20,094 bases of DNA, from IMG/VR virus record IMGVR_UViG_2563366990_000010, positions 1 through 20,094 of that record. One strand, given 5' to 3'. The position numbers and the translations under genes are program-made. Source of the DNA: a virus (lineage: Duplodnaviria; Heunggongvirae; Uroviricota; Caudoviricetes). Under the pieces are notes generated by a model, which was not told the DNA's origin, ran no database searches, and saw only the letters and a program-made list of their open reading frames with translations. Shown here in pieces: positions 597-11,893 of this stretch (position 1 is the stretch's first letter; each line of letters begins with the position of its first letter).

Positions 597-1277
597 CTAT
601 CGCCATTGCTCCCCAAATACAAAACCAATTTCAGCCAGTGCCTCGTCCATTTTTTCGATGAACTCTGGCACCATTTCGTCAAAACCAGCCATGTATTTTT
701 CATCCCGTTCGACCACGACATAATGCAGTCCTTCACGCTTCATACGCGGGTCATAGTTGGCAAAGTACCAGGCATCTTTTCGTGTCACCCACATGCTGTA
801 CTGCACCTGGGCCATGTAAGCCGACTTTATGGCCTCGAAACCACCTAGCCGGAACTTCATGAAATCCCGGGAGGTAAACGGGCATTTCAGCTCAAGGCCG
901 TTGCCATCACTGCATAAACCATCGGGAGAGCAGGCGGTACGCATACTTTCGTCGCGATAGATGATCGGGGATTCAGTAACATTCACGCCGGAAGTGAACT
1001 CAAACAGGGTTCTGGCGTCGTTCTCGTACTGTTTTCCCCAGGCCAGCGCCTTAGCGTTAACTTCCGGAGCCACACCGGTGCAAACCTCGGCAAGCAGGGT
1101 GTGGAAGTAGGACATTTTCATGTCAGGCCATTTCTTTCCGGAGCGGGGTTTTGCTATCACGTTGTGAACTTCTGAAGCTGTGATGACGCCGAGCCGTAAT
1201 TTGTGCCACGCATCATCCCCCTGCACGATAGCTCTCACGTCGATCCCGGTACGCTGCAGGATAATGTCCGATGTCAT
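597..1277 (-). CDS. exo: Lambda-type 5'-3' exonuclease (Red alpha), 226 aa
   Basis: The translation is near-identical, from recall, to phage lambda Exo (YqaJ-type fold, same 226-aa length). Its start overlaps the bet stop. Confidence 0.95.
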
Positions 1278-2059
1278 ATTGCCACCTTCTGCTCTGCGGC
1301 TTTCTGTTTCAGGAATCCAAGAGCTTTCACTGCTTCGTCCTGTTTCAGTTCTGACAATGCACGAATGTCGCGGCGAAATATCTGGGAACAGAGCGGCAAT
1401 AAGTCGTCATCCCATGTTTTATCCAGGGCGATCAGCAGAGTGTTAATCTCCTGCATGGTTTCATCGTTAACCGGAGTGATGTCGCGTTCCGGCTGATGTT
1501 CTGCAGTGTGTGCGGTATTTTCGACAATGCGCTCGGCTTCATCCTTGTCATAGATACCCGCAAATCCGAAGGCCAGCCGGGCACACTGAATCATGGCTTT
1601 ATGCCGTAACATCCGTTTGGGATGCGACTGCCACGGCCCCGTAATTTCTTTGCCTTCTCGGGTTTTGAATGGTGCGCGGCGACATTCATCCATCCACTCG
1701 GTAACGCAGATCGGGTGATTGCGATCTTTGCGGTAAATCCGGCATGTACAGGACTCATTGTCCTGCTCAAAGTCCATGCCATCAAACTGCTGGTTTTCAT
1801 TGATAATGCGGGACCAGCCATCAACGCCAACCACCGGAACGATGCCGTTCTGCTTGTCAGGGAAGGCGTAAATTTCTTTCGTCCAGGGATTAAGGCCGTA
1901 CTGGTTGGCGACGATCAACAATGCGATAAATTGCGCATCGCTGGCATCACCTTTAAATGCCGTCTGGCGAAGAGTGGTGATTAGTTCCTGTGGGTCGACA
2001 GAATCCATGCCGACACGTTCAGCCAGCTTCCCTGCCAGCGTTGCGAGTGCTGTACTCAT
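1274..2059 (-). CDS. bet: Lambda-type single-strand annealing protein (Red beta), 261 aa
   Basis: The translation is near-identical, from recall, to lambda Bet (261 aa, RecT/Red-beta family). Lies directly between gam and exo as in lambda. Confidence 0.95.
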
Positions 2060-2064
2060 CCGTT

Positions 2065-2361
2065 TTATACCTCTGAATCAATATTAATTTGGTGACGGGC
2101 GATGGTTTCAGCCATGTAGCGGATGTGTTCTGCCATGCGTTCCTGAAAATCGACATCGTCATCAAATGCACGGGAAATAGCTTTTTTGCTGGCCCCGTGA
2201 CGTTGCAGATTATCGATGCATAGCGATTCAAACAGGTGTTGGGGCAGACCTTTTTCCAGGTCGTCTGCCAGCTCAGCTTCAGTTTCTTCACGGGCAATTT
2301 GCTGGTAGTGTCGTGCCCATGACTGCTCTTCAATGCGATCGGGGATAAGCCAGGCATTCAT
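2065..2361 (-). CDS. gam: RecBCD inhibitor Gam, short 98-aa form
   Basis: The translation matches the lambda Gam C-terminal domain ([14 protein letters not shown] ... [20 protein letters not shown]). Its ATG overlaps the upstream ORF stop (ATGA), so only the 98-aa form is encoded here. Confidence 0.92.
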
Positions 2362-4430
2362 GATTTATCACCTCCGAAATTTTCAAGCCTGTTGGCAATC
2401 ATGATGGCGATATCAGGGATTGCTGGCGCTGTGGCTATACATGCGGGGTTGGCGCACAAACCATAGACGGCGGCAATCACGAGCTGTCTTTTCCAGTCGA
2501 GAGTTACTGGCTCAGAATTGGCGTCATCGCCGGACGTATCACTGCCTGGCTCGTTCTGAACAACGGTTTCGCCCTCCTGAGCGGCATCAACAGAGTTTTC
2601 CTGAATGATCTTCTCCTCAGTTTGTGCTGAGTCTTCTCCATCAGCGGCGTCATTTTCTCCAAAAGTTTCTGTGTAAGTGCTATCGCCCATTACCGCACTA
2701 CAGTCAGGGCAGTTACCCCCGCCAGTCTGACCACAGACGCGGCAGTTTTTTTCCAGCTCCGGTTGCGCTACTGGGGCTGGCTGTTGCTCTTCTGGCCCGT
2801 TTTGTTGCGTATCCGGGCTGTTTTGTCCCGCTTCTGGGGCAATTTGTTCCACTTTGGACTGATTCTGGTCCTCAGTGTCGCGAGCCTGGATCCCCTTAAT
2901 CCACTTCGGGTCGGTTGGGTCGCTGATGCCTTCAACGAATTCTCCTCGAGAAGCTGCCAGTAATTTGTCGGCATCGACTGGATTCCTGGGGGGAATGTTT
3001 TCCCTGGCTTTATTGAGTTCCTCCCGCAGCTTCTGGTATTTCGTTTCTACAGATGAGACATTTTCCAGTGATTGCGTGTCCTCATTATGTTTAACTGGAA
3101 TTTTTTCCACTGATTCAGGCGCTGCCTGTTCATTAGCCATTGTGTCTGATGCTTGCTGCTTTTCTTCATCGTTATGTTTCTCTTCTGTTGTTCCGCGCTG
3201 CGGCATCGGGGCTGATGAGCGACCGCAGGCAATTTCCACGATCTCCGGATCCGGGTTAGTGTGATCGGTTTCGGTTAACACTTTGTTGAGATACTCAGTC
3301 ACGCGTGCCGGGATGGCCTCAATGCCGATTGGTGCTTCTTTCACGGAAGCCACCACAATGGCGCGGGAATAATCCAGCCCACCGGGCATGGCGATAAATT
3401 TGTCGCGAAAAACAGAAAAGGGCGGCTTATTCTCTGACACGATTTCTTCAACGCGTTTTGCGTGTGCTGGGTGCAGGTTATAAATATCCACATCCATTGA
3501 ACGGGCCAGAACGCCGGTGGCTACATCTCGTGCGAGTGATGTCTTATCATGTTTGAATCCTTCACCACGATCGGTAATATTTCCGCCGCCAGCGTTAGCA
3601 CCGGAAGGCGTACGGGTAATGCCTGAAACATAATTTCCGTTCTGCCATTCTTTTGTCAGCAGGCCCTGATCAAGGTAGTCAGTTTTCATCCAGGTGGAAA
3701 TGAACTTGTCGAATTCAGCCGGGCTGATGCGATGATTTGCAGAGTGGGGGAATGCTTTCCCTACAGATTCAGCCAGGCGACTAAGGTGATAGTTCGTCAG
3801 TTTATCCAGTTCATGATGCGCGGCGCGCACAGCAGTAAGCAGGCTCTGAAGGTAACTGTCCTCTGTGTCCATCTCCATACGGATCACGTTATTGCGTTGT
3901 TCTGGTGTGGCATGATGCCGGTATTTTCCATCTTCATCTTTGCTGAATAAGAAGAGGTGAAGGAAGCGATGAGTAAGGCTCAGAGTGGCGACGGGAATTT
4001 CACACTCAGAACAGTCATCGTCGCTGTCCGGGGATTCGTTTTTCTCCACATCATCCGGAATAGTTCCGTCCGGGTCATCGTTGTCATCGCCAGCAGTTGT
4101 GGCATCTTCACCGTTGATGTTGTCATTGAAGGGTATAGCCATCATGGTGATGCCATCTTCCCCGCCTTTTTCATAGCGGTTGCAGAATTCAGTATCAAAC
4201 ACGCCTTCCGGTGGAAGGTCATTCACGACGGGGAAATTTACGCGAACGGGTTTTTTGAAATCATCCTCGTCGTAGCCTGCATCGTCCATGGCTGCAATGC
4301 AGCGGGAAACTGCGACAGAAAGTTTTCTGGCATCAGCCCAGAAAAAACCGCCTTTGATGCCAAGGCGTTTTCTGACTTTATCGTTTTTTGCTTCGCAGTG
4401 TAGTGCAAAAGTCTGTTTATCAGCGCTCAT
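2358..4430 (-). CDS. Large acidic hypothetical protein, 690 aa
   Basis: Uninterrupted 2073-nt ORF in the leftward early operon immediately upstream of gam, translationally coupled to it. Contains poly-acidic low-complexity tracts, a C-x2-C-x8-C-x2-C motif ([15 protein letters not shown]) and a hydrophobic C-terminal segment. I recognise no family. Confidence 0.8.
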
Positions 4431-7654: not shown

Positions 7655-8362
7655 TTACCAGCTATGTGATGACCAGAACACTCGCCCTATGATTCTTACG
7701 TTTTTGTAGAATTCTTCTCTGTTCATTACTTCATCAGGATACTCTTCGCGGTTTATCGATCTGATAATTACCGATGTTGGCGTGGCTATGAGCGTTTTTA
7801 CCCTTAACAAATCAGCTTGGCAAATTGCATATGTTTTACCATCCCTGATGCTCGTATCTTGCGTGTTTACCCCCACCACATCACCATCATGGAGTGTTGG
7901 CTCCATGCTTTGCCCAACAACCCTGACCAACTTTGCCGCTTTTTCTGGAACTCCCATTTTTTTCAGGTAATAGCGCCTAAAAACTAGAGAGAATTCTGCG
8001 GACTCCTCCAATGCACAACTTCCTCCGCCAGCTGAAAGTGAAATATTTAGAAGGGGGAGCGCAACAAATTCGTCATTATCATTTTGATGATCATCCCAGG
8101 CGATAGCTTTTAAAGATGATTCCCGAGCATTAGATGGCTCTTCTGCGCTCTGTGGTCTCATTGACCCTATACCAGAGCTTAGCCATTCAGGGCGAACTCT
8201 TAACGCGTTGGCTAATTCGACCATTTTACGTGATCCGGTTGTTTTACCAGATGACATCTTTTGTATGGCTGGTTGTGATACCCCCACCATGTCTGCAAGT
8301 TGTGCTTGTGACAACCCGGCTGAACTCATGGCGGCATTTAGTCTTTCTGCGAATGTTTTCAT
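7655..8362 (-). CDS. cI: CI-like prophage repressor (N-terminal HTH plus C-terminal S24 LexA-like peptidase domain), 235 aa
   Basis: N-terminal HTH (LSQAQLADMVGVSQPAIQKM). C-terminal autoproteolysis domain with a G-Q-S-M-E-P serine motif and a downstream lysine; a candidate Ala-Gly cleavage site (LSAGGG). Divergent from the cro-like gene across the operator region. Confidence 0.9.
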   Translation of the reverse strand: MKTFAERLNAAMSSAGLSQAQLADMVGVSQPAIQKMSSGKTTGSRKMVELANALRVRPEWLSSGIGSMRPQSAEEPSNARESSLKAIAWDDHQNDNDEFVALPLLNISLSAGGGSCALEESAEFSLVFRRYYLKKMGVPEKAAKLVRVVGQSMEPTLHDGDVVGVNTQDTSIRDGKTYAICQADLLRVKTLIATPTSVIIRSINREEYPDEVMNREEFYKNVRIIGRVFWSSHSW

Positions 8363-8373
8363 ACCTGTAATCT

Positions 8374-8436
8374 ATAACCACGGTTATCAAAAGTAAAACA
8401 ACAATTGTTATTGCTCTGGTGTATAACTCATGTTAT
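8374..8436. promoter_or_regulatory. OR tripartite operator between cI and cro
   Basis: Three 14-bp sites of form ATAAC-N4-GTTAT: ATAACCACGGTTAT (8374-8387), ACAACAATTGTTAT (8398-8411) and ATAACTCATGTTAT (8423-8436), with 24-25 bp centre-to-centre spacing, lying between the divergent cI and cro starts. Confidence 0.6.
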
Positions 8437-8472
8437 TTTTGGTTATGCTTTATTTGCTGTAGAGGTATGCTC

Positions 8473-8697
8473 ATGAATTTAGTGATTCAGCGAGCCTTGA
8501 ATATTGTTGGCAGTCAAAAACGACTTGCAGCTGATTGCGGCGTATCACAGCCCGCTGTTCATAAATGGTTGCGAGGCGGAAAAGTTTCTCCTGAAAAAGT
8601 TTTCGCTATCGTTAATGCCACCAATGGTCAGGTTAAGGCTTACGAAATTCGCCCGGACTTACCGCACCTGTTTCCTCATCCGAACCAGGCTGAATAA
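8473..8697 (+). CDS. cro: Cro-like HTH regulator, about 74 aa
   Basis: Small HTH protein (LAADCGVSQPAVHKWLRG) divergent from cI. I place the start at the ATG at 8473, with AGAGG 7 nt upstream; the ORF track starts at 8419. Confidence 0.75.
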   Translation: MNLVIQRALNIVGSQKRLAADCGVSQPAVHKWLRGGKVSPEKVFAIVNATNGQVKAYEIRPDLPHLFPHPNQAE

Positions 8698-8813: not shown

Positions 8814-9110
8814 ATGTCACAAACAAGTTACAGCAAACTGTCACAGCGCGATATCGATCGCGCTGAAACGGATTTACTTATCAACCTGTCAGCTCTGACG
8901 CAAAGGGGACTGGCGAAGATGATTGGCTGTCATGAATCGAAGGTCAGTCGTACCGACTGGCGATACATCGCGGCTATTTTATGCGCGTTTCAGATGGCAT
9001 CTGATATCAGTCCGATCAGCCGGGCTTTCCAGCATGCCATTAACGTTCATGCAAATAAAAAACGTCCGGTTGGGGCCGGACGTTCTGAGCAAATCCTGAT
9101 GAATATCTGA
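8814..9110 (+). CDS. cII: CII-like transcriptional activator, 98 aa
   Basis: The C-terminus (KKRPVGAGRSEQILMNI) resembles lambda CII as I recall it; central HTH; positioned between cro and the replication genes. Confidence 0.8.
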   Translation: MSQTSYSKLSQRDIDRAETDLLINLSALTQRGLAKMIGCHESKVSRTDWRYIAAILCAFQMASDISPISRAFQHAINVHANKKRPVGAGRSEQILMNI

Positions 9111-9273
9111 TATTCAGGCAGGGCATGGAGCAATACACGGGAATAATTCTGCCACATCTGGAAGAATTTCGCCAGCAACAACACCAACCGCAGCAGCCTG
9201 AAGCCGATTGGGTTAACCCGGAAATTACGGGGACCGTCTGCGGTATGGAGTAAATCTTGTATGCGAGGGGACT

Positions 9274-10350
9274 ATGCGTAATTACGCAACAATTTCACCT
9301 CAGTTCTGGTTAGGCGATACAGGGCGAAAACTCAGGAAGTCTGGTCCGGAATGTATGGTAGTGGCGTTGTATATGATGACCTCGCCTCATTCCAATATGC
9401 TGGGCCTTTATTACCTGCCTGTTTTGTACATTGCTCACGAAACCGGACTTGATCCTGAAGGGGCTTCTAAGGGGCTTCAAATGGCTTGCGAGGCTGGTTT
9501 TTGCAGCTATGACCATGATTCTGAGGTTGTATGGGTGCATGAAATGGCAGCATGGCAGGTTGGTGAATCGCTGAAACCTGGCGATAACCGTTGTGCTGGG
9601 GTAAGAAATGAATATTCCGCGTTGCTGGAAAATCCTTTTTTATCATCCTTTTATGATAGATATAAGGATGATTTCCACCTGGATGTCAGACGTGAATCAT
9701 GTCGGAAAATTGAAGCCCCTTCAGAGCCCCTTTCAAGCCAAGAACAGGAACAGGAACAGGAAAGAGATAAAACCCTTCTGGTCCATGGCGAAAAAATCGC
9801 CACGGACCCACTGGTGGATTCTTGTCCCGTTCTGACTGAACGTCCAGGACCAGCTGGCATGACACCGGAAGCAGATTCCGGGCGTTGTGTGCAGCAGGTG
9901 CTGCTCGTCGAACCGGAGCAACAACACCAACCGCAGCAGCCTGAAGCCGATTCCGCGATGAGCGGGAAGCCGATTGGGTTAACCCGGGCGATGCCGGGAC
10001 CGTCTGCGGGACGAGTTGATTATCCTGACGTGTTCGAACGGGTCTGGCGTGAATATCCGCATCGGGCAGGGTCAAACCCGAAGAAATCCGCGTTCAATGC
10101 CTGGAGGGCCAGATTACGCGAAGGGGTGTCACCGGATGTCGTGCTGGATGGCGTGAGGCGTTACGCAAGATACCTGGAGGCTACCGGGAAAGCGGGAACT
10201 GAATTTGTTCAGCAGGCATCGACGTTTTTTGGCCCGAACAGGAATTTCGAAAATCCGTGGTCGCTGCCGAAGGCTGGCGCAGTCAGCCAGCGTTGCGTGA
10301 ACCACATTTCTGAACCGGACACCGAAATTCCGCCGGGGTTCAGGGGGTAA
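9274..10350 (+). CDS. Replication initiation protein (O-like position), 358 aa
   Basis: Sits in the O slot immediately upstream of the DnaC-like loader. Contains a (CAGGAA)x3 tandem repeat, an AT-rich 9-bp inverted repeat, and a segment that is duplicated upstream of the gene. Confidence 0.6.
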   Translation: MRNYATISPQFWLGDTGRKLRKSGPECMVVALYMMTSPHSNMLGLYYLPVLYIAHETGLDPEGASKGLQMACEAGFCSYDHDSEVVWVHEMAAWQVGESLKPGDNRCAGVRNEYSALLENPFLSSFYDRYKDDFHLDVRRESCRKIEAPSEPLSSQEQEQEQERDKTLLVHGEKIATDPLVDSCPVLTERPGPAGMTPEADSGRCVQQVLLVEPEQQHQPQQPEADSAMSGKPIGLTRAMPGPSAGRVDYPDVFERVWREYPHRAGSNPKKSAFNAWRARLREGVSPDVVLDGVRRYARYLEATGKAGTEFVQQASTFFGPNRNFENPWSLPKAGAVSQRCVNHISEPDTEIPPGFRG

Positions 10351-10356
10351 TCAGCC

Positions 10357-11097
10357 ATGAAAAACATTTCGACAGGAGGGATTCTTGAACGGGTGCGCCG
10401 TCTGGCACCACCGCACGTGGCAGCACCGTTCCGGACGACCGACGAATGGCGGGAATGGCAACTGGCTGAGGGCCGTAAGCGCAGCGAGGAAATTAACCGC
10501 CAGAATCATCAGGCGCGGGTTGAAAAAATCCTGAACCGTGCGGGCATCCAGCCGCTTCACAGGAAGTGCTCATTCGAGAACTACCGGGTGCAGAACGACG
10601 GTCAGCGCCATGCTCTGAGCCAGGCGAAATCCATTGCCGATGAATTGATGACCGGGTGTACAAACTTCGTGTTCAGCGGTAAACCTGGTACCGGTAAAAA
10701 TCACCTGGCAGCAGCGATTGGCAACCGGCTGATGGCGAAGGGGAGAAGCGTGATTATCGTCACCGTGTCCGATGTCATGAGCGTGTTGCATGACGGCTAT
10801 GACAACGGCAAGTCCGGTGAGAAATTTTTACAGGAACTTTGCGGGGTCGACCTTCTGGTCCTGGATGAAATTGGCATGCAGCGGGATACGCGCAACGAGC
10901 AGGTCATACTGAACCAGATCGTCGACCGCAGAACGGCATCACTGCGCACTGTCGGAATCCTGACGAACCTGAATCACGCAGCGATGAGCACACTCCTCGG
11001 CGAGCGGGTGATGGACCGTATGACCATGAACGGTGGTCGTTGGGTGAGTTTTAACTGGGAGAGCTGGCGATCAAACGTTGGGCGTCAGGGTATGTGA
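10357..11097 (+). CDS. DnaC/IstB-like AAA+ helicase loader (lambda P functional analogue), 246 aa
   Basis: Walker A motif GKPGTGKNHLA and Walker B motif LLVLDEIG; begins 7 nt after the O-like stop. Confidence 0.85.
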   Translation: MKNISTGGILERVRRLAPPHVAAPFRTTDEWREWQLAEGRKRSEEINRQNHQARVEKILNRAGIQPLHRKCSFENYRVQNDGQRHALSQAKSIADELMTGCTNFVFSGKPGTGKNHLAAAIGNRLMAKGRSVIIVTVSDVMSVLHDGYDNGKSGEKFLQELCGVDLLVLDEIGMQRDTRNEQVILNQIVDRRTASLRTVGILTNLNHAAMSTLLGERVMDRMTMNGGRWVSFNWESWRSNVGRQGM

Positions 11098-11122: not shown

Positions 11123-11893
11123 ATGGAAACCGTACTGCATGCACTGAAAGCGATGGGAAAAGCCAATTCTGTTGAACTGGCGGCGCGGCTTGATATCAGC
11201 CGTGAAGAAGTTCTCAACGAACTGTGGGAACTCAAAAAAAATGGCGTTGTTGATAAAACGGGTCACACCTGGTTTCTGGCTGTCGAAGGTGAATCCGGGG
11301 TAACCGAAGGGCAGGCACTACAACCTGAAGCGCCGGATGTGGTAACCGAAGAGGTCGCTCCAAAAGTTAGCGCTGACATGATGATTGAGTTTATCTCTCA
11401 GGAGGGGGCTAAAACATGTGAGGAACTGGCGGGTAAGTTCGGTGTCAGCACTCGCAAGGTTGCTTCCACGCTGGCGGTGGTAACCGCAACGGGACGCCTG
11501 GCACGCGTAAATCAGAACGGTAAATTTCGCTACTGCATGCCTGGAGATAATTTACCAGCAGAGCCGAAAGCTGCATCGGTAGCAGAAACCGATGGTAAAG
11601 CCTTTCCTCAGCCAGCAGGTGTTGCGTTACCGGTACAGGAAGCTGCAACACAGGAAGATATTAAAACAGAAACTGTGGCGGACATTGTGCAGTCGTTGCC
11701 ATCGTTTACTGAAACGCGAGCGGATGACCTGGTTTTACCATCGCTGCATATGGCAAACCGCGAACTGCGTCGGGCGAAAAATCATGTCCAGAAGTGGGAG
11801 CGTGTCTGCGCCGCGCTGCGGGAGCTGAACAAGCACCGGGATATTGTTCGACAGATTGCTGATTCTTCCCGCCGTGTTGCATCGGAAAAGTGA
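11123..11893 (+). CDS. Hypothetical protein with a predicted N-terminal winged-helix domain, 256 aa
   Basis: ORF with a ribosome-binding site; N-terminal helix-rich region, central acidic/Pro-rich linker, basic C-terminus. No family recognised. Confidence 0.55.

Follow-up and report, generated by a model that had tools for sequence, protein, structure and literature searches.

In bacteriophage lambda, ori lies within the O gene, between the parts coding for the DNA-binding N domain and the C domain, and is built of four 18-bp iterons, spaced about 20-24 bp apart, beside an AT-rich region. Auxiliary initiator-binding loci outside the origin are found in P1, with its incA and incC iteron arrays, and in SPP1, where oriL lies within gene 38 and oriR elsewhere. 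For the replication module considered here, one of the closest described systems is the 'Eru4' replication region, whose type phage is Shigella phage 75/02 Stx (PMC8951638). The Eru classification rests on proteins only (PMC8951638, PMC8044961); the words 'repeat' and 'iteron' appear in neither of these texts, and 'origin of replication' does not appear in PMC8044961. The stretch analysed here, called the window, comprises 20,094 nt of viral DNA (IMG/VR virus record IMGVR_UViG_2563366990_000010, positions 1 to 20,094). It is a lambdoid prophage region, Shiga toxin (Stx)-like and of the 'Eru4' type, with cI, cro, cII, a gene for a replication protein of 358 amino acids (aa) and one for a DnaC-like loader. 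A segment from inside the replication gene occurs a second time between cII and the start of that gene. This upstream copy is probably a partial duplication of the DNA coding for the protein's linker, a scar at the joint of lambda-type cII-oop-pO-O' sequence with the non-lambda 'Eru4' module, which has turned into a minisatellite. The features that carry this argument are given first.

9174-9243, plus strand: upstream copy of the linker segment of the replication gene, a single 70-nt unit without the 23-nt segment.
9917-10009, plus strand: internal, ancestral copy, coding for aa 215-246 (EQQHQPQQPEADSAMSGKPIGLTRAMPGPSAG) of the disordered linker.
9953-9975, plus strand: 23-nt segment missing upstream, between GAAGCCGATT at 9943-9952 and at 9966-9975.
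9125-9253, plus strand: small open reading frame (ORF) of 42 codons, phrog_2751, 'hypothetical protein'.
9274-10350, plus strand: gene of the 358-aa replication protein, phrog_1701 'DnaD-like helicase loader' (E=3e-149), with no Pfam match.

A repeat search of the window returned 36 nt at 100% identity (9174-9209 and 9917-9952) and 49 nt at 84% identity (9195-9243 and 9961-10009), and the complete copies measure 70 nt upstream (9174-9243) and 93 nt inside the gene (9917-10009). The 23-nt segment 9953-9975 has no counterpart in the upstream copy and carries GAAGCCGATT at both of its bounds (9943-9952, 9966-9975). The original prediction, made from the letters of the window, that an internal segment of an O-like gene is duplicated upstream is borne out by this search; it had located both copies correctly, with ranges (9169-9243 and 9915-10010) a few bases off. 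Its 10-bp direct repeat around the missing segment is the GAAGCCGATT pair, while the size of that segment is 23 nt and not about 24 bp. The 42-codon ORF with a QQHQPQQPEAD stretch, to which it had also drawn attention, is present as well: including its stop it spans 9125-9253, and it encodes ...QQQHQPQQPEAD, with the copied part read in the frame that the internal copy has. When three mismatches at most are allowed, the 16-mer GATTGGGTTAACCCGG matches at two sites only in the 20-kb window, which are the two copies (0.13 expected), and none of 100 shuffled windows held two matches. Since the bulk of the similarity also lies in the non-repetitive part GATTGGGTTAACCCGG...GGGACCGTCTGCGG, the repeat is due neither to chance nor to low complexity, and the similarity survives the suspicion of an artefact that had been raised with the prediction.

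Comparison with related prophages was used to ask which copy is ancestral. The linker segment is found in replication genes of the Tritos, P0004 and P0011 types at 80-87% and of the P0113 type at 90-91%, and Tritos-type genes match the window from about 9869 on, at about 82%. Loci of these types have no upstream copy, and their replication genes abut YdaT-type or other genes. Because the sister types carry the linker segment inside the gene only, the internal copy is, on this comparative evidence, the ancestral one, and the duplication ran from the internal to the upstream position. The linker stretch that holds the segment is wholly missing from the 302-aa homologs of Klebsiella and Raoultella. 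The upstream copy itself is confined to cII-linked prophages of E. coli and Shigella and is found in none of the sister lineages. The region is carried by 81 of 5426 complete E. coli genomes, and a 16-mer scan of the GTDB species representatives gave 88 single, unrelated chance matches, none of them enterobacterial.

The source of the copy is itself a changeable part of the gene. In an AlphaFold2 model, the replication protein has an N domain (1-130), a disordered stretch (140-247) and a helical C domain (250-330); aa 215-246, encoded by the internal copy, have a predicted local distance difference test (pLDDT) score of 30-38 and no secondary structure. The linker is made of GAAGCCGATT ('PEADS') motifs, two to four per gene in every linker-bearing allele examined. 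One more linker repeat can be listed in the window:

9868-9877, plus strand: further, degenerate GAAGCAGATT ('PEADS') motif.

The variation of a (GAACAG)n tract gives rise to replication proteins of 358, 360, 362 and 366 aa. Being disordered, missing in the 302-aa homologs, built of GAAGCCGATT repeats and variable in the length of (GAACAG)n, the linker is an indel-prone, hypervariable region. As a separate observation, this hexanucleotide tract, at 9739-9762 in the window, codes for (QE)n, and its length differs among near-identical relatives.

The left edge of the upstream copy is the second line of evidence, and it involves the following features.

9111-9173, unstranded: spacer, left flank of the upstream copy, homologous to the lambda cII stop, the 5' end of oop, pO and the first ~9 codons of O (an O' relic).
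9059-9086, minus strand: oop-like intrinsic terminator, found by a terminator scan within the cII 3' end, with a stem of 11 pairs and then a T-run.
9244-9273, plus strand: right junction, read from the sequence, which holds the Shine-Dalgarno GAGGGGA of the replication gene.

Against the post-cII regions of lambda, ev207, BP-4795 and phi315, the stretch 9111-9173 is 50-55% identical in ungapped alignments of 64 nt, a value reached by 0-7 of 5000 shuffles. This lambda-type homology stops at 9173/9174, which is the start of the copied segment. The ATG of lambda O is aligned to CTG at 9149-9151, codon 9 of the small ORF, in frame, and the start of lambda oop to about 9138. The -10 and -35 hexamers of pO were derived from the known oop start in the lambda sequence; their equivalents here, CAGAAT (9151-9146) and TGGCGA (9174-9169), are degenerate, and the -35 equivalent straddles the joint. 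A sigma-70 consensus scan of 9140-9180 returned no oop-type promoter match, the assignment of pO resting on the lambda alignment only. The minus-strand terminator (9086-9059) aligns with the lambda oop terminator region. As the lambda homology is in frame and ends exactly at the copied segment, the small ORF is, read from the alignment, a degenerate lambda-type O stub with a new ATG at 9125, fused to and reading into the linker fragment of the new replication gene. A comparable stub is seen in phi315, where an ORF of 48 codons begins at the lambda-type start ATGACAAA and precedes a different O allele, and stubs of the O start may be common at the cII-O joint. The 'recombination scar' offered by the original prediction thus gains support from three sides, as expected of a partial duplication at a joint: the source segment is found in relatives without the copy and is the ancestral one, the copy belongs to a single, cII-linked lineage, and the foreign, lambda-type homology ends at its left edge.

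Several observations were made along with the alignment of this region. An oop-like antisense RNA of 9050-9138, minus strand, can be predicted, with its 5' end near 9138 taken from the lambda alignment. In phi315 (L058, 550-696), the ORF from the lambda-type O start is mis-annotated as 'tail protein', and other Stx phages, namely phi315 and Min27 (L055, 521-682), likewise have cII separated from an O allele of non-lambda type by a small ORF or by some 160 nt of spacer. A similarity of 9057-9118 to the anti-small RNA AgvB was dismissed as terminator-like (Rfam 20.7 bits versus a gathering score of 56); this family, moreover, sits 3' of PR' and not at cII-O.

The third line of evidence is the behaviour of the upstream copy among relatives. 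Array and gene could be scored together in 35 loci, drawn from the window, GenBank records and IMG/VR contigs. Two upstream units with one internal copy are present in 29 of them, one with one in five, and three upstream units of 113 bp with one internal copy in a single locus, that of E. coli 23CRST049 (L006), for which Tandem Repeats Finder (TRF) gives a period of 113, 2.7 copies and 98% matches. Three 90-bp units together with an intact replication gene are found in loci L061 and L062. Four GenBank phages have two tandem upstream units 90 bp apart and an ORF of 72 aa, and the window is a clean 90-nt contraction of this form. The upstream copy behaves as a head-to-tail minisatellite of 1-3 units of 90 or 113 bp, of which the window has the contracted form. 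Since the one-unit forms (the window, G6/7 and SW070917) keep different spacer/loop variants, contraction took place at least three times. A 16-bp sub-repeat within the array is gained and lost among relatives, and the 23-nt segment missing from the window's unit is present in all three upstream units of 23CRST049. The single unit of the window has 3-4 changes clustered in 8 nt of the spacer between CCCGG and CCGGG (9210-9233), so that the spacer reads GGAAATTACGGGG, compared with GGGAGATACCGGG or GGAGATACCGGG elsewhere. This exact variant has no match in IMG/VR or in the 5426 complete E. coli genomes (best 98.4%). Its resemblance to the P0113-type allele CCCGTGAAATATCGGG, itself only suggestive, may point to patchy conversion or to quasi-palindrome mutagenesis.

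The copies also appear to communicate with each other. In 23CRST049, GATGCC stands in place of the GAAGCC of the window lineage in all three upstream units and in the internal copy, although the two replication proteins are ~98% identical, and upstream units in general are 96-99% identical to the resident internal copy, compared with 80-91% to other alleles. These lineage-specific variants, shared by the copies, indicate that upstream and internal copies exchange sequence or that re-copying has occurred repeatedly. In E. coli SW071611 (L005), the left part of the upstream copy is joined to the right part of the internal one inside a 22-nt identity tract, GAAGCCGATTGGGTTAACCCGG; the N-terminal two-thirds of the replication gene are deleted, and it is annotated 'missing N-terminus'. 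The same wastewater source in Galapagos also yielded SW070917, whose prophage encodes identical CI, CII and DnaC-like proteins and has an intact one-unit arrangement. The pair indicates that the repeats are a real substrate for deletion of the N-domain and the candidate origin described below.

The scar would go back to an illegitimate or short-homology joining event as modules were exchanged. The role of Rad52-like recombinases in the exchange of modules by illegitimate or relaxed homologous recombination is treated in PMC3945230. One possible route would be an N-terminally truncated O'-linker-C fusion, repaired later by the acquisition of an intact gene. The size of the array might then shift by unequal crossing-over or slippage, and the phage's own RecT/exonuclease system probably promotes such changes, as may be judged by comparison with PMC3945230. 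The array would have no dedicated function, and the small ORF would be a by-product, a 5' stub of lambda O that reads into the copied fragment. The last upstream copy could be retained without function, since its homologous removal would destroy the replication gene.

Four observations weigh against this explanation. The right junction, 9244-9273, has no traceable donor, and a comparison with the sister lineages gave nothing similar in front of their replication genes; among two-unit loci this junction is invariant. Neither ~40 loci nor 40 genomes, sampled across the 81 from E. coli, gave a case of an intact replication gene with zero upstream copies. Arrays of one to three 90-bp units keep the ORF open, their unit length being divisible by three. 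Single-nucleotide polymorphism (SNP) diversity in the array is low: 23 distinct two-unit sequences have 3 singleton sites in the 253-nt intergenic block, compared with ~14 in 461 nt of adjacent N-domain coding sequence (one cluster removed) and 26 in 297 nt of cII, many of which belong to imported blocks. This deficit is borderline (rough P ~0.05), ascertainment-biased and compatible with some constraint. It would allow some function of the array. The ORF might conceivably serve as a translated leader. In the same 23 sequences, the last ~50 nt of cII and the whole intergenic block were seen to be almost invariant, and the 5' 100 nt of cII have shared blocks of 7-10 differences, a patchwork of imported allele segments.

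The low diversity bears on the first of the rival explanations, according to which the repeat is a cis-acting replication element that binds the initiator (or its C-domain), the loader or some host factor, and the array with the internal copy forms part of an origin or of a copy-control locus acting by titration or handcuffing, like plasmid iterons. The invariant cores GATTGGGTTAACCCGG and GGGACCGTCTG, which flank the variable spacer, would fit such an element, as would a 10-bp palindrome in the unit, GGGTTAACCC, and an inverted repeat, CCCGG-N5-7-CCGGG, the match of GAAGCCGATT to the reverse iteron-like GAAGCCCCTT at 8 of 10 positions, and the fact that no intact locus seen lacks an upstream copy. 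However, the element does not follow the N-domain. Most homologs with the same N-domain lack it, among them Klebsiella homologs (L059, L060) that also have the same AAGGGGCTT motifs, and it is present at 90-91% in a P0113-type gene (L050) with a different N-domain and no AAGGGGCTT motifs. Sister lineages replicate without an upstream copy. The units measure 70-113 bp, occur in 1-3 copies and have differing spacer variants, the palindrome GGGTTAACCC is lost in the Tritos allele, and hairpin potential is not above that of shuffles (z -0.4 to -1.2). Both copies lie in DNA of 60-64% GC (62-64% for the internal copy), away from the sole AT-rich dip, 9600-9699 with 36% GC, which lies between the two copies, ~360 bp past the upstream and ~220 bp short of the internal one. 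The short phased repeats, adjacent AT-rich region and co-variation with the DNA-binding domain expected of iterons of the lambda ori type are all missing, and the explanation is unlikely.

Better iteron candidates are provided elsewhere in the gene, outside the duplication:

9458-9732, unstranded: candidate origin, with AAGGGGCTT twice at 9458-9477 (plus) and twice at 9713-9732 (minus), with an 11-bp period.

The two AAGGGGCTT clusters flank the AT-rich dip and an inverted repeat (9642-9654/9660-9672). The motif is present at nt 185/196 and 440/451(/463) of every gene with the window's N-domain, E. coli sister lineages included; the same exact 9-mers recur in the Klebsiella homologs, at only ~51% protein identity, and genes with other N-domains lack them. 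In the sisters and in Klebsiella the second cluster is direct; it is inverted in the window lineage, where EGASKGL has become EAPSEPL and the DNA motif is kept. On these sequence features, the AAGGGGCTT clusters are better iteron candidates than the duplicated element. The 'duplicated initiator-binding element' that the original prediction had set beside the scar therefore found no support: the element is GC-rich DNA coding for a disordered linker, it does not track the N-domain and the better iterons are elsewhere in the gene. A broader form of the same idea, that selection maintains the upstream array as a cis element of the Eru4 replication/lysogeny region, perhaps as an additional array of binding sites for the C-terminal part of the replication protein, the loader or a host factor, is quite unlikely too. 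If it were true, the array, located immediately upstream of the pO/oop promoter relic and the start of the replication gene, would tune the expression of the replication gene or of oop, or the control of replication, its copy number of 1-3 would be an adjustable parameter, and the direct repeats around the cassette of origin and N-domain would be a built-in, RecT-driven switch to turn prophage replication off.

A second rival takes the repeat to matter as coding sequence, with the ORF being a real small gene or a regulatory upstream ORF (uORF) that tunes synthesis of the replication protein. A PHROG family exists (phrog_2751, E=4e-55 for the 72-aa form) and is annotated in GenBank records; the ORF is in frame with the relic of the lambda O start, the 90-bp unit keeps it open in arrays of one, two and three units, and it ends 20 nt before the start of the replication gene or overlaps it, both common frames having their stops at or just after this start. 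However, neither the length nor the frame of the ORF is conserved. Protein databases hold forms of 102, 88, 76, 72, 62, 58, 51, 46 and 42 aa, which differ by the number of units, the 16-bp sub-repeat, frameshifts (51, 58 and 76 aa) and read-through (62 aa), so that the C-terminal frame varies as freely as the length. In 23CRST049 the ORF ends after 41 aa, and the remaining 113-bp array has stops in all frames. Within the first 84 nt, that locus and the window differ at five nucleotides, and each difference changes an amino acid, with no excess of synonymous changes in this small sample; residues are altered by other variants as well (Y4C and T5A, for example). The ORF has no Pfam or NCBIfam match, and no protein longer than 102 aa with its N-terminus was found among 5.8 billion proteins. 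Judged by these sequence comparisons the ORF is probably not a conserved gene, and a coding role of the repeat is unlikely.

It is highly improbable that the similarity reflects a structured RNA or DNA element (small RNA, attenuator or cruciform) present twice, for although the unit has inverted repeats at its ends (CCGCAG...CTGCGG) and in its middle (CCCGG...CCGGG), neither copy has an Rfam match at E<=1, folding energies are like those of shuffles (z -0.4 to -1.2), there is no terminator-like T-run, and the copies are direct repeats, which makes mutual pairing impossible.

With the partial duplication at a mosaic joint remaining the preferred explanation, the replication protein and the neighbourhood of the locus can be described more fully. 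The N-terminal domain is the putative DNA-binding part of the protein. A fold search with the model gave no significant match in the PDB; the best had E=0.05, and winged-helix regulators ranked at the top, so that the winged-helix matches of the N-terminal domain are non-significant. The C-terminal tail, ...ISEPDTEIPPGFRG (aa 335-358; 10276-10350), is shared with the otherwise unrelated YdaU of the K-12 Rac prophage (19 aa, 68%) and is weakly like the C-terminus of the primosomal protein DnaT (NCBIfam NF002770, sub-threshold). From this similarity, the tail may be a short motif that binds DnaC-type loaders, which would account for annotations as 'primosomal protein I'. A link to YdaU and oriJ of the Rac prophage was dropped, as YdaU shares the last 19 aa only and has no AAGGGGCTT motifs. 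The neighbouring genes are as follows.

597-1277, minus strand: YqaJ-type exonuclease, of a recombination module (597-4430).
1274-2059, minus strand: RecT, of the same recombination module.
2358-4430, minus strand: ExoVIII-like protein of 690 aa, of the same recombination module.
7655-8362, minus strand: cI-like repressor.
8419-8697: cro-like gene.
8814-9110, plus strand: cII, 98 aa (Pfam Phage_CII, E=6.5e-26).
10357-11097, plus strand: DnaC/IstB-like helicase loader (Pfam IstB_IS21, E=3.6e-19; Bac_DnaA, E=6e-8).
11123-11893: DUF1627 protein.

The 3' end of cII is 72-75% identical to lambda-type cII genes (blastn). From cII to the replication gene, the window has 97.7-98.8% DNA identity to Shigella phages 75/02 Stx and POCJ13 and Escherichia phages phiSTEC1589-Stx1c and PhiR5_2, and the replication gene itself has 97-99% identity to that of Shigella phage 75/02 Stx. 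Modules of the types Eru1-3 were rejected for the window; their proteins differ, and the window is Eru4.

The kind of feature described here is ordinary, a mosaic-joint scar together with a minisatellite, and a new instance of a well-known kind. It has several consequences. The recurrent annotation of phrog_2751 as 'hypothetical protein' in Eru4-type Stx phages is likely an artefact. The locus is a fragile site, where recombination between short direct repeats can remove the half of the replication gene with the candidate origin, one route to the domestication of a prophage. The array is a length-variable marker for the typing of these prophages. Neither PMC8951638 nor PMC8044961 describes an origin for this module; the AAGGGGCTT clusters are a concrete candidate that can be tested, and they are probably a more useful lead than the duplication.

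If we compare the locus with known systems, one of the nearest is the type phage 75/02 Stx of the 'Eru4' region, which has a near-identical region of cII, replication gene and dnaC-like gene and differs in having two upstream units where the window has one. In kind, the locus is like the scars and gene stubs of lambdoid mosaic joints, with which it shares the sharp end of homology at the edge of the element, the restriction to one lineage, the parallel in phi315, and a 5' stub of O kept because it overlaps the pO/oop region. Unlike usual mosaic joints, this one carries an internal piece of the incoming replication gene itself, since expanded to a tandem array, and the origin-containing N-terminal part of the gene is flanked by direct repeats. 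Minisatellite or variable-number tandem repeat (VNTR) loci resemble it in their head-to-tail units, present in 1-3 copies among near-identical prophages, in the homogenisation of units and in recurrent contractions; here, in contrast, the array exchanges sequence with one more copy, located in an essential gene at a distance of ~750 bp, and the window keeps one unit. The likeness to lambda ori is one of position, the internal copy lying between the putative DNA-binding N domain and the C domain, whereas the unit is 70-113 bp long, GC-rich and independent of the N-domain, and it is the AAGGGGCTT clusters at 9458-9732 that come closer to the arrangement in lambda. As in the incA/incC loci of P1 and oriL/oriR of SPP1, a sequence from the initiator gene or its immediate neighbourhood recurs at another position; unlike them, the repeat has no iteron-like size or phasing, and its second locus is missing from sister lineages.

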